A stretch of DNA of 64,000 nt from assembly GCA_019120295.1 (NCBI GenBank), contig DWVI01000002.1, positions 80,869 through 144,868 of the forward strand. Reading direction: 5' to 3'. The stretch comes from Candidatus Onthoplasma faecipullorum (GTDB taxonomy: Bacteria; Bacillota; Clostridia; Christensenellales; UBA1242). Below are positions 1,811-43,776 of the stretch, in pieces (the first letter of the stretch is position 1; the number at the start of each line of letters is the position of its first letter). The notes beneath the pieces are model-generated. The model was not told the origin of the DNA. It searched no databases and saw nothing but the letters and a program-made list of their open reading frames with translations. Position numbers and translations under genes: made by a program.

Positions 1811-1839
1811 TTGACAAATAGTAATTATGTTGTTATAAT
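1811..1839 (+). promoter_or_regulatory. Consensus sigma-A promoter
   Basis: TTGACA (1811-1816), a 17-nt spacer and TATAAT (1834-1839) lie upstream of the lipoprotein gene at 1876. Confidence 0.7.
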
Positions 1840-2913: not shown

Positions 2914-2918
2914 CAAAC

Positions 2919-2972
2919 AAAAAATGGTACTTGGGTGAACCGAATCGGTTCACCTTTTTTGTACCATTTTTT
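2919..2972. terminator. Bidirectional intrinsic terminator between convergent genes
   Basis: The inner stem is ggtgaacc (2934-2941) with ggttcacc (2947-2954). The outer stem is atggtac with gtaccat. An A-run lies upstream and a T-run downstream. Confidence 0.85.
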
Positions 2973-2973
2973 A

Positions 2974-5900
2974 TTACAAGACATTTATTCCACCTGCTGT
3001 CACTATAACTTGGTCTTCTATATCCGTTCCTTCGTCACCTTCTTTGAAACGTAAGTTTACATTTCCTCCAAGAGAAACACAAACTGATTCTGTTAAATAA
3101 TATAATCTTCCATTATTTCCTGTTGGGAAAGTATACGCAGTAGACGATTCAGACTCAGAATAAGAATTTGATTCGAAAAGATTATCCGCCGTTATATCCT
3201 GACGAGTAAACGCTCTATTGCTATACATGTATCTTGTATATAAACCGATAGACGAATTTGTTAAATATTTATTGTAATTATACATTATTTGTTTATCGTC
3301 ATCTTGGTTTGAAATTATTTGTGATACTACACAAACTCCATCTTGAACAGAATAAGTTGTTGATAAAGTGTATAATCTTCCATTTTCAACGTAGTAATTA
3401 TATCCTACTGTGTAATAATCTAAATTTGTTATTCCTTGGTAATCAGTAGAAGAAATATTTTCTATATAATAATTATCTTTATAATAATCATATCGGTTTA
3501 TTAAATCTCCGAAAGTTATATTCAGTTCAGATCCATTTCTAGTATAGATTGTTATAGAAAGCTCTTCATAATTACCTTCTATTGGTTCGTAAACTGATGT
3601 AACACCTTCGATAAATTCATTTGTTACGTATCCGCCATCATAGTAATAGTAAGTTACTTCATGTGCAATTGATATATCCGAAGTGGCGTTTGCTGTGTAA
3701 TAATTGCTATCTTGAATATTAGGTATCTCGCTATTGTTATAATATGGGTTAGTGAATGAATGTGGATAAATATATAGATAAATTGGATCACCTTCACTTG
3801 TTCCATGAGGTAATTGATCTTGCCCATAGATATAAATCTGATTGCCAGCACTATTTAAAACGACTTCTGCTATAACATAATAACCTGTTCTCGGTTCAAC
3901 TGTTTGCACACCATCTTCACCAGTTACTGTTTCTGTGTAATTAACTTGAATATAATCTATTCCTTCTTCTCCTTCTGGTTGGCTAGTTGTCCACGTAAAT
4001 CTAGCAATTTTTCTAGTGTCATCTTCTTCATTTTGGATACCATTCGCAGTGTAATATGCATTTTTCATATATGAGTAGCCTAAGTGATAATAAACTGATT
4101 GTCTATTTCCTTCTATATATTCAGTAACTTCTATTAGAGTGTCTGCTAACTGATAAACTCCGCTACCATTTATTTGTGTTTCGCTAGTTATTGGTCTAAT
4201 ATTAGTAAATAATGAATTGTAGTTATAGGATACACTTTGAACGACTGATGCTTCCAAGTTATTTGTTACACCAGTTCCCCATGGCACGCCATTTATTGAA
4301 AATTCACCGGTAGTTCTATCTTGTGTCAAATTATTATCTACATCGTTATCATAATTATTATATGTGTTGTCAGATTCTTCGTATTGACCTCTAACATAGA
4401 TGTAACCGTTAATTGTTGTATAATCACCTTGTGTAAAGTTTGATGTATCTACGTGTGCTTGTGCTGGTCTGTTTATAACATCACAGGCATCAGCCAATTT
4501 ATAGTACACACCATTCTTATAAATATAGTAACGATAAATTTCCCAATCTGCACTATTATCCGAAGCCCCAGAACTACCCCTAGTATATTCTGTATCTCCT
4601 ATTACAATACTATCAATCACCATAGGTGAAGAGTTTTCATTTATATTTACAATTCGACCATCATCTCCATTAGTGTTAACACCCGCATTATTTAGCACTA
4701 TTGGATCATTTGCTGGGTTAAGAGGATCTGTATATTGGTAATATTTATTGTAATAATCTGCCGGCCTTTCTGTTGAATAGTAAATATAATATGCCTGATT
4801 TTTATCATCTGCTATTATATGACTATCTTGTACACTTAATTTATCATCATCATAAAGAATTTGTCTATTATAAGTTGATGAGAAGAATCCAAAACTTTGA
4901 TCTAGTTTAGAATAATATGTTGATTTTGCTATTTGATTTGAATTTATGCTAGCAATTAACATACCTCCGAGAGCATATACTAATCCGTGTTTTAATACAG
5001 TTTTACCAATCTGTTTGAAAACATATTTAAGTAGTTTTTTGGCTCCCTGTCTTACTATTGCACCGAAACCGCCTGTAAACACAGTTATTGCAAGATCCAC
5101 AACTATGCTTCCACCGAAAGCAAGCCAATACACCCAAGAATGGCCATTAGATTGCTCTGAAATTATTTCATTTGCTTTAGTTGAGTTTGCACCACTAACA
5201 TTAAATATTGAGCCATCACTAGGTAAGTTATCAGATGTAACACCACTGATTGTCGTGTTGTGGTATATTGTATCAAAATCAAAATAAACATTTCCAGTAG
5301 AATCATAATAACCTACATTATACACAAGAAATACTAGTGTTTCTTCATTTTGACCATTATCGCCCAGTAAACTCTTCCAATCCCCACCTACTGTATTATA
5401 CGCTGTTGTCCAGTTATAATAAGTTAAACCTGCAAGGCTAGAATTGTTGTTTATAGAGATATAATAAACTTCACTTATATCACCAAATCCAATAGTCGCC
5501 CATACAAAATCAATAAAAGTTGTTTTGTCATCGCTAGGTATTGAATATAATCCTTTATTATCATACATTGGTGATGCCATACCAATCGCTGAATAAAGGG
5601 TAGGAGAACCTTCCATGTCTTCATAGATTGTGTAACAGATATAATCATCTGTATAACTATCCGCACTTTTACCAGGTTGAAGTAATAAATTATTCGCATT
5701 TAAATTTAAATTGCCAATAGTTCCTACTTTGGTTATGTTTGCGGCATCGTAAATTACCGCTATTGAATCCCATTCATTGCCTGGATTATCTTCACGTGGA
5801 ATATTTCTTTGTAAGGTTCTAAATGTTGTGTACTCTTTTGCCCAACCTGAAATATTACCGTTTCGCATCCAATTTGCCAAATTTTGTTTTGAAGCATTTG

Positions 5901-8900
5901 GTTGATTTTCCACTGTATATTCGGTTCCATTTATTGCTGTTTTATTTAATGGATTTGAATATGGAACTGTTTGGCTCGCTGAAATATTGAATGTGTCTAA
6001 GTTAACATAATAAGCCTGAGCAATTAAGTTTATATAACTATTACTTGTGTCCGCAGTGTAAGACGATTGACCATCCGCATAGTTAGAGTTTTCAATAGTG
6101 TTAACCGTAAATGGATAATTATGTTCTCCTTCAACGGTCACTGACGTACCATAGTATGCATTATTAGTTCCTTCAACTACTCTATTTAAATTACCGCCTT
6201 TTGCCACTTTTAGCATACCAACAAGTCCGCCAAAATTAATGTCATCATCTCCAAAAACTATCAATCCTGAAACCATGTTGTTTGAATTAGAAGCAACTGT
6301 GTTATCATCATTTCTTAATATAGTTAAATTTCCCTCTAATCTTCCTATCAAACCACCTATATAATATGAAGATACAGTATTGATACTTATGACCGCACGA
6401 TTAATTCCTGATGTTGGCACAATTTGCATTCCTTGTCCATTCATTGTAAGCTTTCCTACCAATCCACCAACATACATACCTGATAAACTTGTATCACTTT
6501 GAACATTAATTACTACAGTATCATTAGAATTATTTACAAGAGCGTCGTTAACCACTATATCAGCGTTGGATAAAGATAAATTATCCTGACCTGACGGACC
6601 ATCAAAATAGCCTACTATACCACCAATATTATAAGCTCCGCTAACATTAACATCGTCTAACAGTTTTGGCAATAATACCATAGGTAATTCGTCATCACCT
6701 GTTGTTACATTGTAATAATAACCATAGAATGTTCCGACATTCACGCCTAAACTTGCATTAATATTAACTTGTATATTATTTGTGCTGGCTAAATTTTCAA
6801 TCTCTGTTCCGTTTTCTGCTTCTGTGTATTTTATTAGTGAACTCATATTCACTGAACCAATGAATCCACCAAATCCACTTGTAATTTCATTAAACTCTTT
6901 TCTTTCACTGGTTAAATCTAAATATGGATTTTCAGCACTAAAATATACACTGTTATCGCTGTTGGAAGTAAATGATAAATCGGCCATATAGTTTTCTATG
7001 GTTGAAATAGTAGAAGCATCATCACTATTATAGGCCATAGCACCTTCTGAGGTAGATGTAATGTATCCGTTTATAACATTGTTATAAGTTATTTCACCAG
7101 CGGTTGACGAACCAATGAATCCGCCAACACTTGTTGGGATTACATATTCCCAAACGGTTGTTCTACCATTGTCTTCGGTTTCGTAACTTGCTAAATATAC
7201 ACCTTTTATTTCTAAACCTGTCGAGCTATTTGCACTGCTTTCGTCTTCACTTGTTCCAGGTAATTCAGCATCCGACAATGCACCTACAATATTATTTCTT
7301 ATAATAGATAGATTGGTTGTGTTTGTGTTATAACCAACTAAACCACCAACGCTTGTGTTACCATAAACGTTTGCTTTTGTCCAAATTGAATCAATTGTTC
7401 CGCCTGTTACTAGTCCTACTGCACCACCAACGTTTATCACACCAGTGATTTGAGCAGTTCTCGAAACGGAAACAGCATAATCATTAAGCGTAAAGTAATT
7501 ATTATTAACATCGTTGCTATTTGTCAATTCGTAATAATTTACTATTTCATCACCCTCTTCAACTTGGTGTTCAGTAAATTTGTAATTGGAAATTTGTTCT
7601 ACTAATGGAGTATAAATGTTATCATCTCCCAAATTATAAACAAGAGAAATTGAATCGGTATCTATTGTTATGGTTTCTGGGATATCACTATGTAATAATC
7701 CAGTGCTCATATAGCCAATTAAACCACCAACATTTTGATAACCTGTAATGTCCGCATTATTTCTCAGTGCAAACATATAGCTTACATTTTCACCCACATT
7801 ACCAATTACGCCACCGACATTTATTGCCTTAAATCCTATTTTTTGTTCACCACCATTTGAATAAGCATACATATCTGTACTAGAATCATAATTATTATAA
7901 CCATATATCCTAGAATTTGACATGTCGTGTGTAATATCACCATTATTAGTTAATTTTATAGCAGTTTGACCTTCAAATAGACCTACAACACCTCCAACAT
8001 TTACGATTTTAATATTTCCACTATCTGCAAAAGTCTCTGCACCGTTTATATTAATAGTATTGTAGTTAACAATCTCTTGAATGTTGCGTGGACCATTTTG
8101 TTCATTTTCCGATTGTGTGGTATACAAATACAAATCATCTGTTTCAACTTTACCAAATAATCCGCCCCAGTTTTCAAGTGTTGTTGCATTATTTGGTGTT
8201 GATAAAGTTGCATACGAACTATTAGAATTTAAGAAATTCCAATAATTGTGCTCTGTATTATAAATATCAACCATTTCGTTAACGTCCGATGTTACTAAAC
8301 CAACCGCGCCACCAACATTTGTTATACCTGCAACATTTACGTTGTAAGCAACGCCATTTGGTCTATCTATGTTTACAGTTCCACCATTATACCAACCTAT
8401 GATTCCACCAACATTTTTACCATTTACAACAGTAAGGTTTGTTGAAATTGAATTACCAAGTGTTATTTCAATGCTTGAATTAGATTCAGTTTTGCCAATT
8501 AGTACACCGAAAGCAGTTTGTTCTTCTTCTGAATTAACAGACGCTGTTATTTGTATTGAGAAAGCATCTTGGCTACTAGCATGTGTAAATCCGCTTACTA
8601 CTGATGCACCACCCGTGAGTTTAGCCGTAATCAAACCAAAATAACTATCAAGATTAACTGCTTGAATTTGTGCAAAGTTATTTGTGTGAATAGCACAATT
8701 ATCTAATGTAACATTACCAGCAATTTCACCAACTAAACCGCCAAAACTGTTTATGTATGATATGCTAGTGTTTGAAGTAGATGGGACAACAACTACATTA
8801 TTCACTATTGATGTTGAGTTTGTTGAACTTAAACCTACAATACCACCTAAAATGTCAACCCCTCTATCGGCGTCAAATGCATATAGATTTATTATAGTAT

Positions 8901-11900
8901 CATTTCCATAGATGGTTCCACCTGAAAGTTGACCAATTAAACCACCGGCATAATTCACATCAGCAAATTGTACTGATAAATTTCCAGCCGCATTATCATT
9001 AGCAGTGACAAATTGCAACGAACCACCACTCATGCTACCAGCAATTAGTCCAGCATAATTTGCGTCTTCTAATGCTATTGAAACATAAGTATTGTTAGTG
9101 TTAATAGCATCAGTTGATGTGGTTTGAAGGTTATCAATTTCTATATTCCCTGAAATAATGTTACCAAACAAGCCACCAATATATGTTGTAACTTCAGTTT
9201 CTCCTGTCCTTGTTCCACCAGTAATGGTATTTAGTTGATCTCGGTTTTCAGTTGCAAAATAAATATTTTGAACGGTAACAGTTATCTCAGTTGATTGTCC
9301 TTCAACATCTGAATCTATGACTGTACCTAACGCTCCACTATTTTGTAAATAAGTGAAATTACCAAGTTTTAAGTAACCAAAGTAGGCATTATCTATATTT
9401 GCAAACAAACCATTATTAGAGAGATTTGTTATTGTGCATAAGTTGTCTAAATTATCTATTTCTAATGGTGAATATGCATAATTCCTATTAGATATGAACA
9501 AGCCATTAAATTCATTTCCACCAAGCATTTTATAATAATCATCTGAAATTGTGATATTTGAATTGCTTGTTCTACCAACAGGCTCCCATTGTGTTTCTTG
9601 TGCATCAATGTCATAAATAAGCATATAATTTAAACTTGTGTTGATAAATCCGGTAACATCTGGTACATTAAAATCTGCCGAATCAATATATGATAATCCT
9701 TGAATACTTGATAAAACTCCCAAATGTGGAATTTTATATGCATGTTCGTAGCTAGAATTATTTAAATTATCAATATTTGGTTCAATATTTACTTGTGAAA
9801 GGTCTGTAATATCAGATGTTGTTGAACCTGTGCCCGTATACAACTGATAAGCAACTGGGCTGTATTGCAAATCTTCTGCGTTGCCAGTTGATGTTATTTG
9901 TTTGTAGTCGTTATATACAGGATAGCCATAGTTATATCCATAACTTGGAGATGTTGGATTAACATAGTAAACTTCGGCTTCACTACTTGGCGATTTGAAT
10001 ATAATATTCCAATTGCCAACCAACCCTGTTCCATTCATAATTTCAAGGGTGGTGGCAAAACTAACGCCTGTGATATTACCAGTTTCAATATTTGCCAAAC
10101 TATCAATAAAGTTATTATTACCATTGAATGGTGCTCCATTTTCACTTTGAGAGTAGAAACTATTGCCATTAGCGCTTAAACCTTCAATGACCCCTGCCAT
10201 ATAAGAGTTGTAAACATAACTATTTTCACTGACAGTACCAATAATACCTGCACTTGGAACAACCGTACTATCAGTTAAAACATTGTTGATATAACCAGTG
10301 AAGTAACTATTTACAATTTTACCTGCATTTTGTGAAACTATACCAGATAAATTACTATTTCCACTAACAGTTACATTTAAGATTTCTGCTGTTGAATATG
10401 CGTTATAAACTAAACCTTCATTTCGACCAGCAATCAAACCAATATCTATGCTGTTGCCAGTTGAAGAAAGTGTAAGACCTGTGCCTTGAACAGAGATGTT
10501 ATACATCACACCCCTATTTAAGCCAACAACCAAACCTACAACGTTGTTTGGAATTTCAACTTCCGTGTTATCTTCCATGCTTGCTAAATTTAAGTGAATA
10601 TTTGAAACTGCTGATTTATTATCAGTTGATGCAAACACACCACTATATTGGTTATTATTAACACTTGATAAATTATTAGTTGTATTTACGCTGTAACTTT
10701 TTTCTCCACCAATAATGAAACCTTTAATTACATCTAAATTATTTTCATGCGCTGTGAATTTAGGAAGTGTTGTTAAGTTTGAACTCAATAAGTAGTAAGC
10801 GTAATTTTCTTGCATTATATACTCATTGACGCTATCTACAACATAAGGTTCAAACACTGTTCCTTGTGTGTAACTATAGCCTGTTGAAGTAATGTTAAGA
10901 ATTGAATGACTAATTAATAACTCTTCTATACTTGCAATATATGGAACGCTTCCAAGGTCACCATTACCAGCAGGAACTGTGCCCCAAATTGTTGTGTTAT
11001 CCGTGTTGAAATTTGGCATATAAATGCTTGGTTGATTGATTAAAAGGTTTGCTGAAAGGTTTGTGCCAACATCTTCACTTTGTGTTACAAGTGCCAAGTC
11101 TGATGAATAATAAACATCAACTATATTAACACCTGTTACGTTACCTTCTGCATCTCCTCTACCGGCACTTGCATACAATGCGCCAGTTTGAGCATGTGGC
11201 AACATATCATTTGCAATTTCATTTAAGAAAATGCTTTCAAGTGATATAGCGCGAGTTATTGTTAGTCCATCTGCTTCACCAACTAAACCTCCAAGCATCA
11301 ACACTGAATTATCATTATAACTATTTGTTATTGGATAAATTCTTCCAGCAGTTAAAGCATCATTTATGCTCAATGAACTTGCTTCACCAACTAAACCGCC
11401 TGCAAACAGACTAGAAGTGCCACCAGAACCAATGTTTACTTCTTGAACATATGCCATGCTTTCAGAAATTGTCAATACAGCGCTTTCAGATTGTGCAACA
11501 ATACCACCATAATGCACACTTGTAATTGTATTTAAACTATCAGTTGTTTCGCCAGTTTCGTCATTAGTTATTGTGGTTGAATTTACATATCCTGTGAATA
11601 AACTGCTTTCTATCCTTGCACTGTTACCACCAATATAAGCAACACCTAATGAAGTGTTTAAGTAGTTGACACTTAGCCCCGTTAAATCAATGTTAGCCGT
11701 TACTCCTGTTGACCTAATTTGAGCATTTTCACTCGCACCAGATTGTTGCATTTCACCAATTGCACCAGCAACAAAAGTGTTGACTGTGGTTGTGCCTGTT
11801 TCATTTGATTGAGTTCCTGAAACTGTTATATTAGTTAAAATTGTTGCAGAAGATAAAATCGAATCTTCAGACCTAGCAATACCACCAGAAACAATAGTGT

Positions 11901-17900: not shown

Positions 17901-20900
17901 CTTCTGCATCTAACACATAACCAGTGTACAAACTTGCATTGAAATTTAAGTTGCCTTCTGTGTTTATAATAAATCCGCTTTCATTAATTTCAACAGCCGT
18001 TGCAGATTTAAACACAATCACCCTTAAAACAACACTATCTATTTCAATTGTTTGGTCAACCCCACCAATTTGTGGATAAACATTTTCACCAAAATATCTA
18101 GTTAGATTAAATATTAATTTGATTGTAATGTTTTCGTCCCATCTGTTGCCGTCAAATTGAGCATTTTCTTGAATACCCAAACGAACAGTGTCAATGGCAA
18201 GTGTTGATTGAATATCTACTACGCTATTTGAAACTTGTTCAAATTCTACGCTAACAAATTCGTCCACTCTATCTAAGTCAAATAGAGTTGAACATTCTTG
18301 ACCTTGATAGATATTTTCAGGCTCTATTGAAATTAAATATGGATTGCTTCCAATAAATGTTGTCAATTCATAGTCTGCTGTGTCGTTTGCGTCGTTTATT
18401 TCTTCAATATTGTTTGCAGAAATATTTAAATCGGTTATACCAAGGTAAGTGTAGAACGCAATGTACGCTTCAACCGTGTCGTCAAACACTGAATATGCAC
18501 GAACAATTATTGGTGTGCCACCACTAACACCTGTGAACACGATTTGTTCATTATTAACAATATAAGCATAACTCATGCCCGAAACAATTTCATAATATAA
18601 TCCTGAACTTGCATCAATTGGAAGAACTGAAACATCAATTAATCCGTTTTCGTCCCCTGCACTACCAGTGTTAACCAAATTATAAGTGTTTAACCTAGCA
18701 TTGTTAAGTGGATTAGTTGAATTGTGATAGTTTATGATAGCAGAATGAGCAAATGTGATTTCGTTTGTGTCAATTTCCTTATCCACATAAATTGAATTAA
18801 TAGTAATAACATAACTTTCATTTATGTTTGCACTAATTTCACTTGGTCTAATAATCATTACAGGAACATTTTGTTCATTTAGCAAATATGGGAAATAATA
18901 ATTCAAACCTTGAATTTGAATGAAATTATTTCTAACAATCACACCTGCACTTTCGTAAGCGTAATTAGATTTTAAAGCGTCACCTTCATAAACATTAGTG
19001 TTATCTTTAATTATATTTATCCACTCTTCTTCATTGAATGTTAAGGTTATAAAGGTGCTTTGAAGATAGGTTAAAAGATTTTCGCCAATATTTTCACTCG
19101 CCTTAATATATCTATTATTTTCTTCTACATATAAATTTTCAAAATTTTGATTTACAACTAGGCTATTATCCACAACCGAAATGTAATCAGCATTTATATT
19201 ATAATAGGTATACGTAGCGTTAAATTGCTGAGCATCGGTTATTAGATATGCATTACTATCTGCATCAACACCAATAAGCCCTTCGCTAATTTCGGCTAAA
19301 ATTGCGTCTTCATTTAATGAATAGTAAGTTGTGCCTTCTTCGAACACACTTGTTTCGTCTAATTTTGTGAAAACTGTGTCATTAAGAATATAAAGACTAC
19401 TCTTTAACTCTTCAAAAGTTTCAGCGGTAACTATGACTTCACTTAACAAACTATCAACAGTTACTTCTGATAAAACGTTAACACTTGTTTCATCAAACAC
19501 ACCATTTGTTAAATCAATTTCAGTTGCTGTGTAATTTGCAATTGAATACATTGCAATATCAGTGTAAACAATATTAAAATCACTATTAGCGTTCGAATTT
19601 ATAGTTGCGCCTTCATAGTTTTGCACTTTACCTAAGAAATATGTGCTTGTTTCAGTTGCGTTTGAAGTTAAGTAAATTGTGCTAGTGTTGTTATTAACTG
19701 CGATGTTTACTTGCACAAATGAGTTAGAAATTGTGCTTGTTGCACCATTTACTAAGCCATAAACTTGGTCAATGCCACTAGATAATGTGTAGAAATCGGA
19801 CACAACGCCATTATTTTCTTCACCAGAAACAAAGTTTTGCAAACTTGCGTATTCAATCGTGTCGTTAGAAGAATTTGCAACAATACCCGCAACAACTCCT
19901 GCACCTTCAATTTTACCAACAGTTGTACGCGCGCTAGTAAATGTTGTGTTTGCACTTATAAATCTAACGTTTGTGATAGTGTAACCACTTGAACTTCCCA
20001 CAATACCTGCAAGGCTAATTCCTGTTGACGAAGATATTAAATCTAAACCTATAACTGTGCAACTATCAATGTATTTAACGTTAACATTTTCACCCGCTTC
20101 AAATATATTTACACCAACCACACCACCAACGTAACCAGTTGACGAATAGTTTGCATTGTTTTGAACTTCTATTGAACCGCCAATAAGTAGGTTTTTAATA
20201 ATACCGTTATAGTTTTCACCAGCAACGCCACCAACGTTGATAACAGCATTATTTGTATTACTATAAATGGTTAAGTTAGAAATAACATTAAACACAATGT
20301 TATTTAAACCATCTTTATCCACATAATTTCCACTTATTTCACCAGCATTTAGACCTGCAACTAAGCCAACATTTAAGCCATCAGCATTAGAATTAGAAGT
20401 TGTTAACACAACATTATCAAATTTAACGCACTCTGCATCTAAACTAATAACGCCATTATTGCTACCAACTAGTCCGCCAAAATATGTTGCAGTTGTTGAT
20501 GTGATGGTGGTTGTGCCATTAGTAACTAGTGAAACGCCACTGATTGTACCACTATTTACACCAGCAAGCGAACCAACATATAAATTTGTGCCATTATTCG
20601 TGTGAGAATACTCGGTTGCATATGATGTTATAAGGTCTAAATTAGAAATTTCAGCATCTGCACCAAGAATTGTAAATAATCCAGCGTAAGCATGGCCATC
20701 TCCGTCTAAAACAGGTGAAGGTAAGGTTAAACTAATTGAATATCTTACGCTTGAAACAATTTGATTATTTGAGCCAACTGTTTGGCGTGTTCCAGACAAT
20801 GTTCCGTTAAATTGAGATGCTAAAATTTGTCCGTTATTATCAGTTGTTCCGATAGGTGTGAAACTACCACTTAAAACTATATTATCACCTAACACATAAC

Positions 20901-23900
20901 TAGCATTTAGGTCATTATTTATGTAATTTAATTCTTCTTCACTTGATATAATGTAAGGGTTTTGCCTTGTTCCATCGCTAATCATAATGAACAAACTTGT
21001 TCCCCTATCTTCGCTGTATGTGTGAGTTTCGTCGTTGTACGCATCTTGTGGCACTATTACAAGTTTAAATAGTCCGCCACCTAAAAGTTTATCAGCACGA
21101 ATTCTAACCGTTCCCTCTTCATTAAATATAACATCTAATCTCTCGGTTTGAACAAGGTCTAATTTGATTTCACCATTTTCCATTATAATTTGACCGTTAT
21201 TATCTAGGTCAACTTGATACAACACATAAGTTAAATCACCAAAACGAAGGCGTCCGTCTTGTGGTTCAGTTGTGTTATATCTAGCCCTTGCGGTAAATGT
21301 TTCTTGGTCGTAGTCTCCGTCTGCAACGTCAATGAAAGACATATAGATGTAGTTACTATCCACACCTTCATTTACTATACTATTTCCTGAAACTACCACA
21401 CCTTCAACATATTCATAATCTGCAAAGTTTATAGTGATAGTTTGCGCAACATTTGAACTCTCGCCAAACCTTAACGCTTCAACAACGAGTGTTAAACTAT
21501 TATAGGTTGGAGTTCCATTTAATCTTACAACAATATTACCATTTAATATATCTTGTTCGTTTCCGTCGGTTAAAATGTAACCATTTTGGCTATTAGATAA
21601 ATCTAATTCTTCAAGCTCACCATTCCTATTTATTAAAACACTTATGTTATCGTAAGCATTCAATTGCCTATTAAATGACAATCTTAACTGTGATGCATGT
21701 TCAACGCTACCGCTAGTGAAGTTGACACCGCTTGAAGGAATTGCACTGCTTGCAGAAGATGCCACACTGATTTGTGCACTACTTGCATCTTCAAATTGTG
21801 AATTGATATAAGTTATATTTGTTTGGTCAGCAGTTAAACTGATTGATTGAATTGGGTCGTAGACCGCAAACTCCAACTGTATATTTTTTGTTGCTTCTTC
21901 AATTAAACCAGTAACAGAATTAGTTGTGTAATAATGAATGGTCAATGTTAAAACTTGCGTTCTACCACCGATGTTCGCAGTAAGTGAGAACACATTTCCT
22001 GACACCACATTATAAGTAATTGCACGTGTGCTGAAATTGCCTGTTGAATAATTTGTGTTGGTGCTAAGAGAAATATCACTAATAACTTGTGCAATATCAA
22101 CTATAGAACCAACCGCCCTACCTAGCACACTCACTTCAAGGTAACCATCTTTAACAACTGCAAAGTATTTTATATCTTCATTTTGTCCGTTAGTTTCGGC
22201 AAGTCCATTATCTTCAGGAATAATTTCCATGCCATTATTGTTAGATAAACTCATTGTAATGCTACTTTCATCTAATAAATACACACTACTTACAGCAAAT
22301 TCCGCGCCAACAGTTATGTTTTCGTCCCCTGCGCTGATGTTAATTTGAGAATTTTCCATTGATGCAACAGGAAGAATTTCCACTCTGTAAATATTGTAAA
22401 CATTTCCCTGTGCATCTCTAACGCTGCTTGCTTCAAGCACTACATTCGGATCATTAAGCGATATAGTGTTAGAACGATTGCTAAATAAAATCGCGTCATT
22501 GTTGCTATGTAAAGTTATTGTGCTTGCATCTAAAACTGTACCTGTATAGTACACTTGCACATAAAAACCGCTTGTTTCACGCGCATTTATCAACAAATTT
22601 GCATTTTGAATAGGATTTGTTAACACCTCATTTGAATAACCAGAATACACATTAATACTATCAGCAGTAATAACTTTGTTCAATATATAAGTTGCACTAA
22701 CGTAAGTTTCGTTAACAGTTTCACCTTCAAAATTGCTTGGTGAAGCGAGAACTTTAATTGAAATTCTTTGCTCTGTTGAAACGTTGTCATTAAATAATAT
22801 CCTAATTGTTTCACCACTGCGCAAACGTAAAGCACTTCCAACATGTTCTAATGAATTACCTGTAATATTCAAGTTGTTTAAACTTCCGTTTATACTTTCA
22901 ATTAACAAATAATCATTTGAAGAATTTTCTGGGAAAGCAGACAAAGTTAACTCTAAACCAGCGTAGTCAGCCCTTGTGCCATAAACTATTCCGTTAGCAG
23001 TGCCTCCATTTGCTATAGTTTCACCATTAATACGAATTGAAGTTGGCAAAATTTCCTTAGTTAGGGTTACTTGTTTTTCATAACGCGGTTCAGTTGACGT
23101 GAAATACTCTACGCCATTAAGTGTTAAAGCAAATCTAATTGTATTGGTTCTTATTTCAGCATCAATGGCGGTTATAAATATCACGCCATCTCTATTTTCA
23201 ACTATTAAACCGTTTATTGTTTCAGTTTCGTCAAAATCAATAAGTCTACCATCAACATAAACAGCAATCCCATATGAAATAGCATCGTCTATTGTCAATC
23301 TTTCGCTATTGTAGAAAGAAGAAAAATCATTATACTCTATTGTTATTTGGCTAGTGTTGTAATTTGAATTGCCAACATAAAGTGTCATATTATCGCCAAC
23401 ATCATTAGCCGTTCTACTATATTTAACGTCCGGCACATATAAAGATTGGTCAGTGTTTACAATTCTATCCACTATATACACGTCAAAATATGCGGAAATT
23501 TCTTCATTGTATAGTGAAGTCGCCTTAATTCTAACGATATATCTACTGTCAGTAAGCACGAAATCATTAGAGACTGTCAACACTCCACCAGCAGTTATGT
23601 TAACGCCAGCGGTTGACGAAGTTGCAACATACACATTTTGATTAGACGCACCGTCATAATTGTATGCACCCACTGAATCTATTGAATATCTAACGCCTGT
23701 TTGGTCAGTTTTATTTGCAGGTAAATATGTTAGATTGTTCACTTGCATCAATGCAAGTCCAACATTATCACCAATAACAACTGCTGGTTTAATAGATGTG
23801 TCCACTTCAATGCCAGTGATACTACGCGAAACACTTAAACCTATATTTGTTGTTTTTTGTGAATTGGTTTCATAAAATCTTAAATTTGATTTAACATTGT

Positions 23901-24264
23901 CTGTGATGCGCAACGCAAACACTTGATTTTGTTCAACAGTGGCGGTTGAGAAATTTAAGCCACTACTTATACCTGAAGTTGTAACGATAATATCATCAAT
24001 ATACCTTTCTCTAACGTTTGCAATTTCAACGCGAACATAAATTACACCGTAACCTAAACTCTCATCAATTTGAAGGGAATCATTTTCTCCACCATATGTA
24101 ACTGAAATACCATTGGTTGCATCCAACCAATTCGAAGAATCTTCACTGAAAGCGTATGAAATACGGAATTCCATGTTTTCATATCTATCCCCGCACGCAC
24201 TTAAAACAAACGGACATAGAAGCAACATAATACTTACAAATACGCTAAATATTCTCTTTTTCAT
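2974..24264 (-). CDS. Giant (7,096 aa) surface protein with a lipoprotein signal, multiple GLUG-motif beta-helix-like blocks, a C-terminal TM hairpin and a Tyr-rich tail
   Basis: There is one uninterrupted 21,291-nt ORF with an SD (gagggg) before the ATG. The N-terminus MKKRIFSVFVSIMLLLCPFVLSAC carries a lipobox. I counted about 50 motifs of the form (V/F/Y)GG(L/V/I)(V/I/A)G....G.I.N by eye. All plus-strand ORFs within it are short antisense shadows. Confidence 0.9.
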   Translation of the reverse strand: MKKRIFSVFVSIMLLLCPFVLSACGDRYENMEFRISYAFSEDSSNWLDATNGISVTYGGENDSLQIDESLGYGVIYVRVEIANVRERYIDDIIVTTSGISSGLNFSTATVEQNQVFALRITDNVKSNLRFYETNSQKTTNIGLSVSRSITGIEVDTSIKPAVVIGDNVGLALMQVNNLTYLPANKTDQTGVRYSIDSVGAYNYDGASNQNVYVATSSTAGVNITAGGVLTVSNDFVLTDSRYIVRIKATSLYNEEISAYFDVYIVDRIVNTDQSLYVPDVKYSRTANDVGDNMTLYVGNSNYNTSQITIEYNDFSSFYNSERLTIDDAISYGIAVYVDGRLIDFDETETINGLIVENRDGVIFITAIDAEIRTNTIRFALTLNGVEYFTSTEPRYEKQVTLTKEILPTSIRINGETIANGGTANGIVYGTRADYAGLELTLSAFPENSSNDYLLIESINGSLNNLNITGNSLEHVGSALRLRSGETIRILFNDNVSTEQRISIKVLASPSNFEGETVNETYVSATYILNKVITADSINVYSGYSNEVLTNPIQNANLLINARETSGFYVQVYYTGTVLDASTITLHSNNDAILFSNRSNTISLNDPNVVLEASSVRDAQGNVYNIYRVEILPVASMENSQINISAGDENITVGAEFAVSSVYLLDESSITMSLSNNNGMEIIPEDNGLAETNGQNEDIKYFAVVKDGYLEVSVLGRAVGSIVDIAQVISDISLSTNTNYSTGNFSTRAITYNVVSGNVFSLTANIGGRTQVLTLTIHYYTTNSVTGLIEEATKNIQLEFAVYDPIQSISLTADQTNITYINSQFEDASSAQISVASSASSAIPSSGVNFTSGSVEHASQLRLSFNRQLNAYDNISVLINRNGELEELDLSNSQNGYILTDGNEQDILNGNIVVRLNGTPTYNSLTLVVEALRFGESSNVAQTITINFADYEYVEGVVVSGNSIVNEGVDSNYIYMSFIDVADGDYDQETFTARARYNTTEPQDGRLRFGDLTYVLYQVDLDNNGQIIMENGEIKLDLVQTERLDVIFNEEGTVRIRADKLLGGGLFKLVIVPQDAYNDETHTYSEDRGTSLFIMISDGTRQNPYIISSEEELNYINNDLNASYVLGDNIVLSGSFTPIGTTDNNGQILASQFNGTLSGTRQTVGSNNQIVSSVRYSISLTLPSPVLDGDGHAYAGLFTILGADAEISNLDLITSYATEYSHTNNGTNLYVGSLAGVNSGTISGVSLVTNGTTTITSTTATYFGGLVGSNNGVISLDAECVKFDNVVLTTSNSNADGLNVGLVAGLNAGEISGNYVDKDGLNNIVFNVISNLTIYSNTNNAVINVGGVAGENYNGIIKNLLIGGSIEVQNNANYSSTGYVGGVVGVNIFEAGENVNVKYIDSCTVIGLDLISSSTGISLAGIVGSSSGYTITNVRFISANTTFTSARTTVGKIEGAGVVAGIVANSSNDTIEYASLQNFVSGEENNGVVSDFYTLSSGIDQVYGLVNGATSTISNSFVQVNIAVNNNTSTIYLTSNATETSTYFLGKVQNYEGATINSNANSDFNIVYTDIAMYSIANYTATEIDLTNGVFDETSVNVLSEVTVDSLLSEVIVTAETFEELKSSLYILNDTVFTKLDETSVFEEGTTYYSLNEDAILAEISEGLIGVDADSNAYLITDAQQFNATYTYYNINADYISVVDNSLVVNQNFENLYVEENNRYIKASENIGENLLTYLQSTFITLTFNEEEWINIIKDNTNVYEGDALKSNYAYESAGVIVRNNFIQIQGLNYYFPYLLNEQNVPVMIIRPSEISANINESYVITINSIYVDKEIDTNEITFAHSAIINYHNSTNPLNNARLNTYNLVNTGSAGDENGLIDVSVLPIDASSGLYYEIVSGMSYAYIVNNEQIVFTGVSGGTPIIVRAYSVFDDTVEAYIAFYTYLGITDLNISANNIEEINDANDTADYELTTFIGSNPYLISIEPENIYQGQECSTLFDLDRVDEFVSVEFEQVSNSVVDIQSTLAIDTVRLGIQENAQFDGNRWDENITIKLIFNLTRYFGENVYPQIGGVDQTIEIDSVVLRVIVFKSATAVEINESGFIINTEGNLNFNASLYTGYVLDAEDAPKNRYDIGCSISQGVVSLNNDTDNKDSITLSFDITSGESEANRLMSITEVDHFAELFDYNFAWQVIESGGLVVGYNYTISMSLEDEFNYRYITSEIEFTLTVSAWSNSGVSDSLLITLTPTTLSSARIENYTATDISSNNSYINLITSSSTETSIIAPGGLGGVMLIYLEPAYSNIISATLTSSTLFVPSLNRDVRINFEQLVYNTDTKSYQTILSGAEPVEGGIQLRLVSTIDNSGREAYNGVIYIHTQLDRFSGLSSTISATLTVETGSTANPTVSVTKQLLTRYLPGASLSYDGIEIRDNEYIIQEDTYSNTMDISVYGYQFNSQPNVNLEWYLNDTTKFTYGSGDAYYSLASSNTYTGGKLTEEEFNDKFDYLFILSNGNYVKLSADATYNSETEYYEPVNRGIIYDVSDTTYSDPYYISNYVTARVDGNYADLLPNTDGSYTMQVLFNVQPDTPTSFKITASQSLTTDESVIVTERSESLIFHPVRAVLNELYFANLNNNTMNLVINHSNTIDFAFNTSNDIIDLNDYIYNRLLAGFTTKDELNNDVLNVEAFVNQFRFVNSAGSVVNLTTNEEDASTNHPQFSVRVVNNQLVFTGLETFNNTIEFGVHYGYVYNAEDGKYQLTFGAMNTNSLAYSIDASFNLIIVPSTSETNAIPIYSASDMVDEEGNTRLVEGTDYILMNDITLDLVQPIDVAIASFDGNNRVIKINSFAVSSEQTNYGLFARIGTYTRNDQEEKTILKNIIVDYSGFNSDNNGILSLVGLNNVTFGGLVAVNDGGLIYNCDVMNLSNTTKTINLVTDASMQNLTFGGLVGENNGTITNSRVGRMNYTRIEADANTQTERTVSGEALMFVVGDNTSTDTQTANGFVGVTGGFVGNNSGVIASSYMANTSLINLSTANSLARTAGFVGTNSGTINYSYVKAREDTISYNSPSATGAYIRAATNGNVAGFVHVNSGTITNSFANTELITTSAFMAGFVYQNSSAGIISECYAACTLNGSNNSLDVSEQPFVGVDEAGTLLSDGQIENSYFLISDNYSEIVEQDGKAQAIALNTENFIDSDKLTGFVFINSTSQTERNQGVWTYYSGNVSVVLPELTNTNIVAHSYRYLVDVTDNEDYVTYNYTNAINYAEGSANNPYIIRNVDEFNEIMTRNSTETNRSMTGYVRFIDDIDFASNSRAIQTRVNFTLGDENNRAVTSIDGNGMNISGIYLDVLDATSATDIGLFSRVENAYIKNLNLNFVSTTLTDDQFSSVSVQYSGGLAGRINNSAIINISLNGSSTTIAGRNFAGGLAGVITGSSMIYGIDTNLSVKAVNTDYNYYMYYNEADFNTMRAAGILPYGNYSDYLTNLSYAGGVAGVIDIVERSNIDFNLSYVNVLGTEMYDRSQANGNIQADYAGGVAGYMNNQTNALRVKFIVGTNNLILGQRATGGLFAVARGSITASQVSAPEDTQYDYDTAFGKYVTDLRNGSEAVLDGDYGNLNLLEGYGYVGGLVGISIGTTINSSYSKASIRTGEVVGGLIGTSYASSVVYSYAVPYINLDYNADIYESVGGLIGSAYGVRQIGTVISRNNPEYEAIALRLNNIVSQDTDLQFTFSTILLDNDEIIPLDATFDYISADYRDGTQYITSNESETLAYVFAGLVNYKFSSESSSVINSMTSIASNINLDDLFDIYGTNIQQETIFYEVFSGWSEEYWTLDSTKYYPLLLNKRVSNYIEIATADDFYKIINNETGNFKIVNNIDMTDWCNQQSGNFILDINFQGVLIGEMADGSGTPILSGLTIDARNTGNAGFFNQTTNATIRNIKFEWNNSNNNGAIVINNTVDMVGMISSSDNGSLFSNLSVTTKTGESNMIATTNNERSSISGFGGIIGNASNSNVLNCSYVGNLNVKLNVNSKDDVMVGGLVGSATRDINSDNQNEENTTNMTISSSYVGRTNSKTTFTFRIPESVNSGNVYIGGLVGEAIQTSISSVRLGSLDNENIDNQNVDINVEMSGTCNTIVSGGIARSEDSILSSATILTNITVSGTQSNETGTTTVNTFVAGAIGEMQQSGASENAQIRSTGVTANIDLTGLSVNYLNTSLGVAYIGGNSARIESSLFTGYVNSTTITNDETGETTDSLNTITSVHYGGIVAQSESAVLTISESMAYVQEVNIGSGGTSSLFAGGLVGEASSLSINDALTAGRIYPITNSYNDNSVLMLGGLVGEADGLTITRAISLESIFLNEIANDMLPHAQTGALYASAGRGDAEGNVTGVNIVDVYYSSDLALVTQSEDVGTNLSANLLINQPSIYMPNFNTDNTTIWGTVPAGNGDLGSVPYIASIEELLISHSILNITSTGYSYTQGTVFEPYVVDSVNEYIMQENYAYYLLSSNLTTLPKFTAHENNLDVIKGFIIGGEKSYSVNTTNNLSSVNNNQYSGVFASTDNKSAVSNIHLNLASMEDNTEVEIPNNVVGLVVGLNRGVMYNISVQGTGLTLSSTGNSIDIGLIAGRNEGLVYNAYSTAEILNVTVSGNSNLSGIVSQNAGKIVNSYFTGYINNVLTDSTVVPSAGIIGTVSENSYVYNSYMAGVIEGLSANGNSFYSQSENGAPFNGNNNFIDSLANIETGNITGVSFATTLEIMNGTGLVGNWNIIFKSPSSEAEVYYVNPTSPSYGYNYGYPVYNDYKQITSTGNAEDLQYSPVAYQLYTGTGSTTSDITDLSQVNIEPNIDNLNNSSYEHAYKIPHLGVLSSIQGLSYIDSADFNVPDVTGFINTSLNYMLIYDIDAQETQWEPVGRTSNSNITISDDYYKMLGGNEFNGLFISNRNYAYSPLEIDNLDNLCTITNLSNNGLFANIDNAYFGYLKLGNFTYLQNSGALGTVIDSDVEGQSTEITVTVQNIYFATENRDQLNTITGGTRTGETEVTTYIGGLFGNIISGNIEIDNLQTTSTDAINTNNTYVSIALEDANYAGLIAGSMSGGSLQFVTANDNAAGNLSVQFADVNYAGGLIGQLSGGTIYGNDTIINLYAFDADRGVDILGGIVGLSSTNSTSIVNNVVVVPSTSNTSISYINSFGGLVGEIAGNVTLDNCAIHTNNFAQIQAVNLDSYFGLITAKLTGGASVVSGFTHASSQDAFSIQITASVNSEEEQTAFGVLIGKTESNSSIEITLGNSISTNLTVVNGKNVGGIIGWYNGGTVNIDRPNGVAYNVNVAGITNVGGAVGLVTSDVNEMVDIYNTEHNYWNFLNSNSSYATLSTPNNATTLENWGGLFGKVETDDLYLYTTQSENEQNGPRNIQEIVNYNTININGAETFADSGNIKIVNVGGVVGLFEGQTAIKLTNNGDITHDMSNSRIYGYNNYDSSTDMYAYSNGGEQKIGFKAINVGGVIGNVGENVSYMFALRNNADITGYQNVGGLIGYMSTGLLHSDIPETITIDTDSISLVYNLGDDNIYTPLVEQISNYKFTEHQVEEGDEIVNYYELTNSNDVNNNYFTLNDYAVSVSRTAQITGVINVGGAVGLVTGGTIDSIWTKANVYGNTSVGGLVGYNTNTTNLSIIRNNIVGALSDAELPGTSEDESSANSSTGLEIKGVYLASYETEDNGRTTVWEYVIPTSVGGFIGSSTAGEITYNNVINGYITSTSEGAMAYNSDDASTISTIENYMADLSFTSNSDNSVYFSAENPYLDLTSERKEFNEITSGFGGFIGSVNMSSLIKYTEAENGTEIENLASTNNIQVNINASLGVNVGTFYGYYYNVTTGDDELPMVLLPKLLDDVNVSGAYNIGGIVGYFDGPSGQDNLSLSNADIVVNDALVNNSNDTVVINVQSDTSLSGMYVGGLVGKLTMNGQGMQIVPTSGINRAVISINTVSSYYIGGLIGRLEGNLTILRNDDNTVASNSNNMVSGLIVFGDDDINFGGLVGMLKVAKGGNLNRVVEGTNNAYYGTSVTVEGEHNYPFTVNTIENSNYADGQSSYTADTSNSYINLIAQAYYVNLDTFNISASQTVPYSNPLNKTAINGTEYTVENQPNASKQNLANWMRNGNISGWAKEYTTFRTLQRNIPREDNPGNEWDSIAVIYDAANITKVGTIGNLNLNANNLLLQPGKSADSYTDDYICYTIYEDMEGSPTLYSAIGMASPMYDNKGLYSIPSDDKTTFIDFVWATIGFGDISEVYYISINNNSSLAGLTYYNWTTAYNTVGGDWKSLLGDNGQNEETLVFLVYNVGYYDSTGNVYFDFDTIYHNTTISGVTSDNLPSDGSIFNVSGANSTKANEIISEQSNGHSWVYWLAFGGSIVVDLAITVFTGGFGAIVRQGAKKLLKYVFKQIGKTVLKHGLVYALGGMLIASINSNQIAKSTYYSKLDQSFGFFSSTYNRQILYDDDKLSVQDSHIIADDKNQAYYIYYSTERPADYYNKYYQYTDPLNPANDPIVLNNAGVNTNGDDGRIVNINENSSPMVIDSIVIGDTEYTRGSSGASDNSADWEIYRYYIYKNGVYYKLADACDVINRPAQAHVDTSNFTQGDYTTINGYIYVRGQYEESDNTYNNYDNDVDNNLTQDRTTGEFSINGVPWGTGVTNNLEASVVQSVSYNYNSLFTNIRPITSETQINGSGVYQLADTLIEVTEYIEGNRQSVYYHLGYSYMKNAYYTANGIQNEEDDTRKIARFTWTTSQPEGEEGIDYIQVNYTETVTGEDGVQTVEPRTGYYVIAEVVLNSAGNQIYIYGQDQLPHGTSEGDPIYLYIYPHSFTNPYYNNSEIPNIQDSNYYTANATSDISIAHEVTYYYYDGGYVTNEFIEGVTSVYEPIEGNYEELSITIYTRNGSELNITFGDLINRYDYYKDNYYIENISSTDYQGITNLDYYTVGYNYYVENGRLYTLSTTYSVQDGVCVVSQIISNQDDDKQIMYNYNKYLTNSSIGLYTRYMYSNRAFTRQDITADNLFESNSYSESESSTAYTFPTGNNGRLYYLTESVCVSLGGNVNLRFKEGDEGTDIEDQVIVTAGGINVL
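4936..5136 (-). other. Predicted transmembrane hairpin of the giant protein (aa ~6377-6443)
   Basis: WVYWLAFGGSIVVDLAITVFTGGFGAIV is followed by the basic loop RQGAKKLLKYVFKQIGKTVLKH and then GLVYALGGMLIASINSN. Confidence 0.6.
6180..20965 (-). other. Region of the giant protein containing six GLUG-motif blocks
   Basis: Each block opens with a head such as RQNPYIISSEEELNYINND (about nt 20965), NAIPIYSASDMVDEEG (about 15925), NNPYIIRNVDEFNEIM (about 14480), YIEIATADDFYKIINN (about 12750), FEPYVVDSVNEYIM (about 10855) or YEHAYKIPHLGVL (about 9750). Runs of GGLVG-type motifs follow each head. The last motif, INFGGLVGMLK, is at about nt 6235. A non-GLUG segment lies at about 15925-19750. Confidence 0.7.
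24193..24264 (-). other. Lipoprotein signal peptide of the giant protein (aa 1-24)
   Basis: A KKR N-region, a hydrophobic core and the lipobox L-S-A-C, with the Cys at residue 24. Confidence 0.75.
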
Positions 24265-24596
24265 AACCCCTCACTTTAACTTGTGTAACTTGCTCGAATT
24301 TATTTATAATTTTATTATATATAAAACAGTTAAAAAAGTCAAAAAAATTTGGCGAAATTTGTAAATTAATTGATTTATAAATAGACGCATAAAATTAAAA
24401 TAAAAAATACCGAAAAAATTAAAAATCACTATTTTGTAGTAATTTTAAAACAAAAATTAAAAAAATTTAAAAATTTATTAAAATTTAATTATTTTTTAAG
24501 TTTTTTTTGATTAGTTTTATTAATTTTTTAAAAATTTTTATTTTTTTTAAGTAAATTTTCTAAATAATATTTTGTTATTTTGATTTGTATAAACTA

Positions 24597-43120: not shown

Positions 43121-43175
43121 TTTCTTTTCCTTATAATTATATATAAACACACGTTATGTGATAAATTTTAAAATA

Positions 43176-43741: not shown

Positions 43742-43747
43742 AATAAT

Positions 43748-43776
43748 ATATTATCATTTTACCACAAATTTGTCAA
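43748..43776 (-). promoter_or_regulatory. Consensus sigma-A promoter of the large ncRNA candidate
   Basis: On minus, TTGACA (43776-43771), a 17-nt spacer and TAATAT (43753-43748). The TSS is predicted at about 43741. Confidence 0.65.

Follow-up and report, generated by a model that had tools for sequence, protein, structure and literature searches.

Features of the giant gene

The window analysed here, a 64,000-nucleotide (nt) stretch of Candidatus Onthoplasma faecipullorum (contig DWVI01000002.1, positions 80,869 to 144,868), contains a 21.3-kb gene that encodes a predicted surface protein of 7,096 amino acids (aa) and converges on the gene of a 345-aa predicted lipoprotein. The sequence-only reading of this DNA had described the larger gene as a single open reading frame (ORF) with a Shine-Dalgarno (SD) sequence and a lipoprotein signal, leaving the strand unstated. 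The ORF lies on the minus strand, and its translation, the SD sequence GAGGGG directly 5' of the ATG and the lipobox LSAC bear out this description. The features of the gene and of its product are:

2974..24264, minus strand: giant coding sequence, 7,096 codons, ATG start, TAA stop, no internal stops in the six-frame scan and translation.
24314..24342, minus strand: promoter-like site TTGACT-17-TATAAT, a consensus match only, about 50 nt upstream of the ATG.
24193..24264, minus strand: predicted signal peptide with lipobox LSA/C (aa 1-24), Kyte-Doolittle (KD) hydropathy peak 2.49.
20977..24192, minus strand: N-terminal region (aa 25-1096), no GLUG motifs.
19585..20976, minus strand: GLUG block 1 (aa 1097-1560), head at aa 1100-1211 (21-36 bits with a head hidden Markov model), GGxxG motifs at aa 1263-1459.
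15958..19584, minus strand: spacer (aa 1561-2769), no motifs.
14497..15957, minus strand: GLUG block 2 (aa 2770-3256), marginal head (independent E-value, i-E, 0.018), motifs at aa 2897-3033, covered by the homologue P0003.
12763..14496, minus strand: GLUG block 3 (aa 3257-3834), the best-supported block, head 35 bits with an independent profile and 103 after iteration.
10870..12762, minus strand: GLUG block 4 (aa 3835-4465), head 96 bits after iteration, second strain-variable region.
9691..10869, minus strand: block 5 (aa 4466-4858), degenerate GLUG-like strands, marginal head (i-E 0.017), no strict GGxxG.
5995..9690, minus strand: GLUG block 6 (aa 4859-6090), 16 strict motifs, head 42-51 bits.
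5134..5994, minus strand: conserved pre-membrane domain (aa 6091-6377), with the motifs GWAKEYT..QRxIP, DDYICYTIYEE, LTYxNW and SGSIFxVNG in an alignment of 13 loci (A3).
4900..5133, minus strand: predicted transmembrane hairpin (aa ~6378-6455), two hydrophobic segments aligned in A3, KD peak 1.92.
2977..4899, minus strand: C-terminal domain (aa 6456-7096, 640 aa), 12% Tyr, Tyr/Gly-rich, family-specific and hypervariable.

The protein begins with MKKRIFSVFVSIMLLLCPFVLSAC followed by GD, that is, with a basic n-region, a hydrophobic core and the lipobox LSAC at aa 21-24. Substrates of the bacterial lipoprotein enzymes Lgt and LspA are recognized by an n-region, an h-region and a lipobox whose final Cys lies ~15-35 residues from the start; these are here MKKR, IFSVFVSIMLLLCPFV and LSAC24, and the orthologue P0001 has FAGAC at the place of the lipobox. 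The frame is open in translation table 11 and its stop is TAA; a code-4 (Mollicutes) reading was considered and is unneeded. The G+C content of the gene is 32-37%, compared to 25-37% in the remaining window.

The GLUG motifs had been described as degenerate at the DNA level and free of long exact repeats, and this is what repeat searches found. The program TRF detects only trivial arrays in the gene, and the longest direct DNA repeats are 25-45 nt long with 62-88% identity, mostly CCACC(A/C)A, the reverse complement of the GG-coding motif. A self-BLAST of 250-aa tiles of the protein gave four weak matches (E 3e-4 to 5e-3). The repeats are old and degenerate.

Integrity and conservation of the gene

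Independent assemblies were drawn from ENA, NCBI and Logan; the 345-aa neighbour and a TilS-like neighbour each occur on 21-22 of their contigs. One contig, ERZ4883056 NODE_2, matches the window with 100% identity, and on other contigs the giant gene is called at 7,095 aa (three times), 7,100 aa or 7,125 aa, or is truncated by the contig end. In thirteen other assemblies the covered parts are 97.3-99.3% identical in nt and contain no internal stops, and the indels among them are of 3, 6 or 9 nt only, all in-frame. The ratio of nonsynonymous to synonymous polymorphism (pN/pS) of the gene is 0.11-0.35 in these 13 assemblies; by region, it is 0.05-0.58 in the extracellular parts, with 0.14 in the N-terminal region, 0.19 in the spacer and 0.05-0.27 in blocks 1, 2, 4 and 6. 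This DNA comparison covered ~9.6-9.9 kb from each end of the gene, all but window positions ~12914-14627 (aa ~3213-3784), and the full-length gene calls of the contigs imply that this segment, too, is open in other assemblies.

A homologous gene is also found beyond the species. An alternative allele of the same species, P0006, encodes 7,097 aa, and in a second species, whose rplJ is 84-85% identical in nt, the giant gene was located through orthologues of its 345-aa neighbour and is called at 7,132 and 7,161 aa. When 1.84 billion representative proteins were scanned in full with HMMER, the last 996 aa had only 31 relatives; a degenerate-pattern scan that covered 185,579 species genomes, built on a 4-sequence alignment because a 12-sequence alignment was too diverse, returned 10 loci. 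The hosts of these 10 loci are uncultured Clostridia metagenome-assembled genomes, 'uncultured Christensenella sp.' and Candidatus Onthoplasma faecigallinarum (locus L026; Christensenellaceae according to NCBI). In seven GTDB species the frame is open across the whole 10-kb upstream flank, for at least 4,278-4,411 aa, wherever the contig allows. A convergent homologue of the 345-aa ORF follows the giant gene in 9 loci, and rplJ comes next in all seven loci that reach far enough.

The order of GLUG blocks, pre-membrane domain, two hydrophobic segments and a C-terminal domain ending in GGIxVL is shared by the window protein, P0006, P0009, P0010, P0013, P0014, P0017, P0018, P0021, P0022 and loci L017-L024 and L026. 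Since full-length calls, open frames and rplJ synteny agree across species, size, architecture and position are conserved. It had been considered that relatives might carry this locus as several separate genes, and this fails: they have a single gene, or frames open over more than 4,300 aa. A search of the literature did not find a paper describing this family of giant proteins.

An assembly artefact or a decaying pseudogene would be conceivable on the grounds that all the assemblies are short-read metagenome assemblies and that repeat proteins are prone to collapse. I consider the chance of this negligible. Several assemblers produced more than 20 independent contigs that are concordant in length, the indels preserve the frame with pN/pS well below 1, the DNA has no long repeats that could collapse, and another species has orthologues of comparable size. 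The giant gene is real, intact and selectively maintained; that it is no assembly artefact had been argued by the sequence-only reading.

GLUG-type beta-helix blocks

The strict motif GG[LIVFM][LIVAFT]G occurs 33 times in the giant protein, against 0.54 expected (2,000 shuffles, maximum 4), and a relaxed GLUG pattern occurs 42 times. The motifs are confined to aa 1260-1460 and 2890-6020. An initial count by eye had given about 50; neither pattern reaches that number, but it is of the right order only if degenerate units lacking GG, such as those of aa 4570-4700, are included. Pfam and NCBIfam searches with the two halves of the protein returned nothing. Of ten 710-aa tiles, five show Glug (PF07581) at 8-20 bits, and the best match (20.2 bits, E 7.6e-4) is in the tile aa 3551-4260, which includes parts of blocks 3 and 4.

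In a phmmer search of 5.8 billion sequences, aa 3255-4454 match P0004 (E 3.8e-8), which carries Pfam M26_N, Por_Secre_tail and Glug in precomputed annotation, and P0005 (E 8.4e-4), which carries Glug and He_PIG. A head profile made from five cap modules of P0004 and P0005 scores 44.6 bits (E 7.8e-16) on the giant protein, with 200 shuffles at or below 8.8, and places heads at aa 1097, 3258 and 3841. When iterated with orthologues, it finds four strong heads, at aa 1100, 3261, 3837 and 4859 (36-103 bits; best shuffled 8.3). Six block heads had been proposed from the letters; these four are supported, whereas the other two (aa 2770-2860 and 4472-4558) lie where they had been placed but are marginal (i-E ~0.02).

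An AlphaFold2 model of block 3 (aa 3255-3835), computed from a 5-sequence alignment, has a mean predicted local distance difference test score (pLDDT) of 59 and a predicted TM-score of 0.66; its residues 1-430 form a regular short-strand solenoid, with pLDDT mostly 60-90. The closest Foldseek matches of this model are the beta-helices 3n6z (E 6.7e-5) and 6xjb (E 5.9e-3), both with probability 1.00, followed at ranks 3-8 by the beta-solenoid adhesins SRRP (5nxk, 5ny0) and PfbA (4mr0, 3zpp). With moderate confidence, the model is a right-handed parallel beta-helix.

Because motifs, homology to P0004 and P0005, head profile and the fold of block 3 agree, the blocks can be described as divergent GLUG-type right-handed beta-helices. 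The GLUG assignment is thus supported indirectly, with Pfam Glug itself below its cut-off, and the original description of a GLUG-type beta-helical surface protein stands on that footing. The chain would contain at least four, and probably six, such modules.

The motifs HExxH and LP.[TSA]G are absent from the giant protein in a motif scan, and no Pfam enzyme domain was found, even at E 10 in the tile scan, in agreement with the earlier statement that no catalytic domain is evident. The protein does not qualify as an M26 IgA1 metalloprotease, with neither HExxH nor, in the Pfam scans, Peptidase_M26_C; nor does it end in a sortase anchor, as LPXTG is missing and the C-terminus reads TAGGINVL.

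The modules could instead be tethered polysaccharide lyases or hydrolases, like pectate lyases and phage tailspikes, making the protein a glycan-active enzyme. Further down, the Foldseek matches include pectate lyases, fucoidan lyase, polygalacturonases and tailspike depolymerases (E 0.06-0.7), and the processing of polymers on cell surfaces has been suggested as a role of giant proteins in other bacteria with small genomes (bioRxiv 10.1101/2023.11.21.568195). However, the lyase-type matches are weak (probability 0.1-0.5) and share a generic fold, the top fold matches are non-catalytic beta-helix domains, and the enzyme families of Pfam are missing, as stated above. An enzymatic role is therefore improbable.

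N-terminal region and spacer

Roughly 1,070 residues precede the first GLUG block, and about 1,200 separate it from the second. The sequence-only reading had described aa 25-1100 as a long non-GLUG region and had placed a gap of about 1,275 aa between blocks 1 and 2; with zero motifs in aa 25-1100 and in aa 1561-2790, both descriptions hold. The Ig-like character that it saw in aa 25-1100 is not confirmed, the only trace being a sub-threshold match to Big_8 (15.8 versus 22.9 bits). The N-terminal region has no significant match in Pfam, NCBIfam, PDB, PHROGs or PADLOC, and the sole homologue found for it is P0001, with 33% identity. Likewise, the spacer has no match in Pfam, PHROGs or PADLOC, and no relative in the PDB. 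A search for internal repeats in the non-GLUG regions gave only noise, so an array of Ig domains could not be shown.

Predicted membrane hairpin and C-terminal domain

The segment following block 6 had no place in the sequence-only reading, which mentioned neither a membrane hairpin, nor a C-terminal module, nor a variable cassette. Paired hydrophobic peaks are found between the GLUG repeats and the C-terminal domain in at least 12 homologues, and in the window protein the loop between the two segments is Lys-rich (RQGAKKLLKYVFKQIGKTVLKHG).

The 13 C-terminal domains of alignment A3 are homologous from end to end, with shared motifs along their full length: YYSSxRPxDYY, GYSYMKNAYYTA, IYPxSFTNPY, TYYYYEGGY, LYTRYKY and the terminal GGIxVL are kept in the 13 loci. 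Across these domains no His or Cys is invariant, and this speaks for a role in binding or structure more than for catalysis. In the PDB, neither the protein sequence nor a profile built from 13 sequences of the last ~1,000 aa has a credible match, Pfam gives only scattered single-member matches on the 13 sequences, and PHROGs and PADLOC give nothing for this module. Two PDB entries, 3ctr (E 0.02) and 1ev1 (E 0.54), were considered as relatives and judged to be chance matches. A 280-aa protein with its own signal peptide, P0023, matches the last ~190 aa of the giant protein; its signal peptide supports an extracellular location for the C-terminal domain.

The convergent lipoprotein gene and nearby genes

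The gene facing the giant gene, and the regulatory elements around it, are:

1876..2913, plus strand: gene of a 345-aa predicted lipoprotein, lipobox AFTAC, Pro-rich linker, convergent with the giant gene.
1811..1839, plus strand: promoter-like site, a perfect TTGACA-17-TATAAT with TG, upstream of the 345-aa gene.
2933..2955, unstranded: GC-rich, terminator-like hairpin, lying between the convergent genes and common to both.

The 345-aa protein contains ASLVLASVVAFTAC, with the Pro-rich linker after it. Its homologues fall into 37 clusters, none of which (0/37) has a Pfam domain, and PHROGs and PADLOC give nothing for it. The AlphaFold2 model of the protein has a pLDDT of 80, rising above 90 for most of aa 75-340, and searches of the PDB and BFVD returned no structure similar to it. 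The protein has a conserved N-terminal subdomain and a variable C-terminal half, which co-varies with the C-terminal domain of the giant protein. Where homologues occur in the absence of a giant gene, their contexts are unrelated, for example beside Sel1/AAA ATPase genes, a GH43 gene or a helix-turn-helix regulator.

A second large surface-type gene lies ~8 kb past the left end of the window (L004 3-2789, minus strand; also in L001-L006, L027, L028 and L034). It encodes 1,068-1,091 aa (1,082 aa in the second species), with a match to Peptidase_M26_N above the cut-off (33.1 versus 27.7 bits) and weak Glug matches; it is conserved there as a smaller GLUG-type paralogue near the giant locus. Also outside the window, at L004 6372-8250 (minus strand), overlapping ORFs of 525 and 107 aa are conserved between rplL and a ComF-like gene. 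The 525-aa protein has a sub-threshold match to HipA_C (27.3 versus 30.5 bits), and the two ORFs may possibly be a HipBA-like toxin-antitoxin or kinase pair.

A hypervariable cassette

Comparison of alleles delimits a region that crosses the boundary between the two convergent genes:

1900..10000, unstranded: hypervariable cassette, the 345-aa gene with the 3' ~7 kb of the giant gene; adjacent flanks 99-100% identical.

Locus L027, which carries P0006, belongs to the same species as the window and has the same flanking genes. Over window positions ~1900-10000 the two are only 54-73% identical in nt in most 500-nt windows, with an island of 87% at 5501-6000. At the protein level, in 250-aa windows, P0006 is 94-100% identical to the window protein over aa 1-4000, 86-98% over aa 4001-4750, 56-80% over aa 4751-6250 and 38-48% over aa 6251-7096. 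The second species shows the phenomenon in a narrower form, as does the allele L032 described below: two genomes of that species have 96-99% identical flanks and 50-72% identity over a stretch made up of the small gene and the final ~1,100 aa of the giant one. The identities for the three comparisons are:

Window versus L027, same species: rplJ 100% nt, 345-aa protein 60% aa, C-terminal domain 48% aa.
L028 versus L034, second species: rplJ 98% nt, 345-aa protein 63% aa, C-terminal domain 46% aa.
Between the two species: rplJ 84-85% nt, 345-aa protein 45-47% aa, C-terminal domain 41-45% aa.

Alleles within a species are thus about as different as alleles of different species. A third allele, L032, diverges in patches, namely the 3' half of the 345-aa gene, aa 6669-6868 in the C-terminal domain and, in block 4, aa 3779-4068. 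In the first of these, its 345-aa protein is 36-38% identical to that of the window over aa 201-299, and 65% over aa 300-345. The synonymous divergence (dS) of the patches is 0.4-2.0, and the ratio of nonsynonymous to synonymous divergence (dN/dS) 0.04-0.7 (0.3-0.7 in the two cassette patches), values that point to imported old alleles and not to recent positive selection. In assemblies selected for an identical 345-aa protein, the C-terminal domain is near-identical as well, with a synonymous polymorphism (pS) of 0.002, yet block 4 has a pS of 0.20.

Block 4 is itself a second, independent strain-variable region (window 10870-12900, aa ~3780-4470; pS 0.20). The L032 patch there has a dS of 0.7-1.0 and a dN/dS of 0.04-0.27, and P0006 is 86-94% identical over this block.

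A strain-variable C-terminus on a giant beta-helical exoprotein, next to a small gene that varies alongside it, recalls contact-dependent toxin delivery of the CdiA, Rhs or WapA type, in which the C-terminal domain would be the toxin and the lipoprotein its immunity protein; that an identical lipoprotein accompanies an identical C-terminal domain fits such an arrangement. On the other hand, all 13 C-terminal domains are homologous throughout instead of being unrelated toxin modules, and a demarcation of the VENN or DLYN type is absent. The breakpoints are not the same from one allele pair to the next, and a fixed demarcation is thus lacking. Neither an invariant His or Cys nor a toxin family (Pfam, PDB, PADLOC) was found, and the neighbour is a convergent predicted surface lipoprotein, not an immunity gene downstream on the same strand, with homologues that exist without the giant gene. 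Toxin delivery is for these reasons very improbable.

Host and other features of the window

The rplJ protein of the window is 78% identical to that of Onthoplasma, a member of the family UBA1242 (Christensenellales), with genomes below 1 Mbp that keep sporulation genes (PMC12306168). According to this 2025 study, UBA1242 genomes lack ATP synthase, standard transporters and the means to make amino acids, nucleotides and lipids, and a partner-dependent lifestyle has been proposed for these bacteria (PMC12306168); they are common in chicken caeca (PMC13155120). Further features of the window are:

60437..62719, minus strand: SpoIIE (Pfam).
~25586-25882, plus strand: SpoIIID (Pfam annotation of the identical contig).
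43163-43752, minus strand: full-length ornate large extremophilic (OLE) RNA, 354.6 bits, E 1.5e-100.
42392-43150, minus strand: 252-aa ORF directly downstream of the OLE RNA, no Pfam match.
37926-40031, minus strand: 701-aa ORF, no Pfam family.
29400-29996, minus strand: 198-aa ORF, no Pfam family, conserved in other assemblies.

SpoIIE and SpoIIID are consistent with the retention of sporulation in UBA1242 (PMC12306168). An OLE RNA in a gut Christensenellales-like bacterium with a possibly reduced genome may deserve attention.

Possible function of the locus

From these observations, a model for the giant protein can be proposed. The gene would be transcribed from its near-consensus sigma-A-type promoter, and the product exported by the Sec pathway with its lipoprotein signal, after which Cys24 would be lipid-anchored, to judge from the lipobox. 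About 6,350 residues would then lie outside the cell, the N-terminal region of ~1,070 aa coming first and the GLUG-type beta-helix modules after it, each opening with an 'NPYxI...DIDF...DGNG' cap, and with the 1,200-aa spacer after module 1. Near the C-terminus, the conserved two-helix hairpin would re-enter the membrane, and the last 640 residues, the Tyr/Gly-rich domain of a new family, would presumably be outside again. Such a fibre may serve in adhesion or recognition, and its targets could be partner cells, host material or glycans. The C-terminal third and the lipoprotein would be swapped as a cassette by recombination, with divergent alleles kept within the species, and I read this variable cassette as an exposed specificity or evasion determinant.

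The interpretation towards which I lean, though with no more than modest confidence, is accordingly worded as a whole: an intact gene for a giant surface fibre that would act in adhesion or recognition, whose C-terminal third, together with the neighbouring lipoprotein, would be a recombining, exposed cassette for specificity or evasion. A narrower version of this interpretation is tentative, and on balance I doubt it: that the beta-helical fibre is an organelle with which genome-reduced, partner-dependent gut Christensenellales (UBA1242-like) attach to and recognize a partner cell or a host surface, and in which C-terminal domain and lipoprotein form a matched specificity pair that determines the partner or kin recognized by a strain. 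The pair would be held diverse by frequency-dependent selection, as a bacterial allorecognition or host-range locus of a new kind.

The protein could alternatively be an envelope scaffold or armour, similar to an S-layer or to Ebh, whose variation reflects pressure from phages or host immunity without any specific ligand. Two membrane anchor points would suit such a role, as would the Pfam scans, in which no catalytic or known binding domain was found, and the cassette-type replacement of alleles resembles the S-layer switching of Clostridioides difficile. The same scans, however, show neither SLH nor CWB2, a single chain of 7,096 aa is unlikely as a lattice subunit, and the closest folds to the modelled block are beta-helices of the IgA1-protease type and adhesins. 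I regard a scaffold as unlikely.

Several observations also weigh against an adhesion or recognition fibre with an exposed specificity cassette. Homologues of the lipoprotein (28-49% identity) occur in L029-L031, L035-L037 and L039-L040, where there is no giant gene; the pairing is thus not obligatory, and the lipoprotein family is wider than the cassette. Linkage alone could explain the co-variation of lipoprotein and C-terminal domain. As for the fold, the gathering score of Pfam Glug (20.5 bits) is missed by 0.3, and the model of block 3 is only moderately confident, given a shallow alignment, with its last 150 residues unmodelled. The topology of the hairpin is predicted solely from hydropathy and the positive-inside rule; in the window protein the second of the hydrophobic segments is short, and in the second species the loop is not basic. 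Finally, were both ends anchored in the membrane, the fibre would need to be a loop, and it sits oddly with the proposed role that the most variable part would be membrane-proximal.

Comparison with known systems and significance

The N-terminal beta-helix of M26 IgA1 proteases (ZmpA/Iga of Streptococcus pneumoniae, 6xjb) and the putative IgA1 protease BACOVA_03286 of Bacteroides ovatus (3n6z), with the Pfam families Glug (PF07581) and Peptidase_M26_N (PF05342), have the same GGLxG strands, cap and right-handed beta-helix. The giant protein differs from them in having no HExxH domain, no LPXTG and only a sub-cut-off Pfam Glug match, and it adds 4-6 beta-helix modules, a lipobox, a predicted membrane hairpin and a new C-terminal domain. 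SRRP of Limosilactobacillus reuteri and PfbA of Streptococcus pneumoniae are surface proteins with the same right-handed beta-helix, which is adhesive there. They consist of one solenoid with an LPXTG sortase anchor, exported through SecA2 or Sec, whereas the giant protein lacks LPXTG and is 10-20 times larger.

Ebh of Staphylococcus aureus is a surface protein of ~1.1 MDa built of alpha-helical FIVAR/GA repeats that are near-identical in DNA. The two are alike as giant envelope proteins of Firmicutes that carry a signal at the N-terminus and a membrane anchor towards the C-terminus, but the repeats of the window protein are beta-helical and highly degenerate. In the S-layer cassette of C. difficile, divergent multi-kb alleles are switched by recombination, and the likeness lies in deeply divergent surface-gene alleles that are swapped between near-identical genomes. 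The proteins are unrelated, and the boundary in our case is located inside one giant gene and differs by allele pair.

The CdiA/CdiI system and other polymorphic toxins (PMC6336857) also combine a giant beta-helical filament with a variable C-terminus and a co-varying small neighbour. In contrast to these, the C-terminal domain of the giant protein is one conserved family without a pre-toxin motif or toxin domain, its neighbour is a convergent lipoprotein, and the host belongs to the Bacillota and is not a CdiB-bearing Gram-negative. The giant proteins of Omnitrophota have 30,000-85,000 aa and contain SecA-like domains and numerous transmembrane regions; as is predicted for the window protein, they are very large, mostly extracellular and membrane-associated, and belong to small-genome bacteria dependent on partners or prey. 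They have been proposed to function in attachment (bioRxiv 10.1101/2023.11.21.568195). No sequence relationship to them was found.

Giant surface proteins built of GLUG beta-helices are therefore known as a kind. What is new here, as far as the searches tell, are ~3,300 residues outside described families (in the N-terminal region, in the spacer and in the C-terminal 1,000 aa), an unusual double tether predicted to hold the protein in the membrane, and a cassette, variable between strains, that joins the end of the giant gene to a neighbouring lipoprotein gene.

Proteins of more than 7,000 aa are rare, and this giant gene is kept in size and position across an uncultured clade from animal guts. 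If the genome is below 1 Mbp, as may be expected for this family, the 21.3-kb gene would take up ~2-3% of it, a share that speaks for a central place in how these bacteria live. The sharp differences between strains in the last third of the protein and in the lipoprotein fit what would be expected of a surface for recognition or evasion, and such hypervariability within a species offers a handle on partner recognition, or on escape from phages or immunity, in uncultured gut Clostridia.

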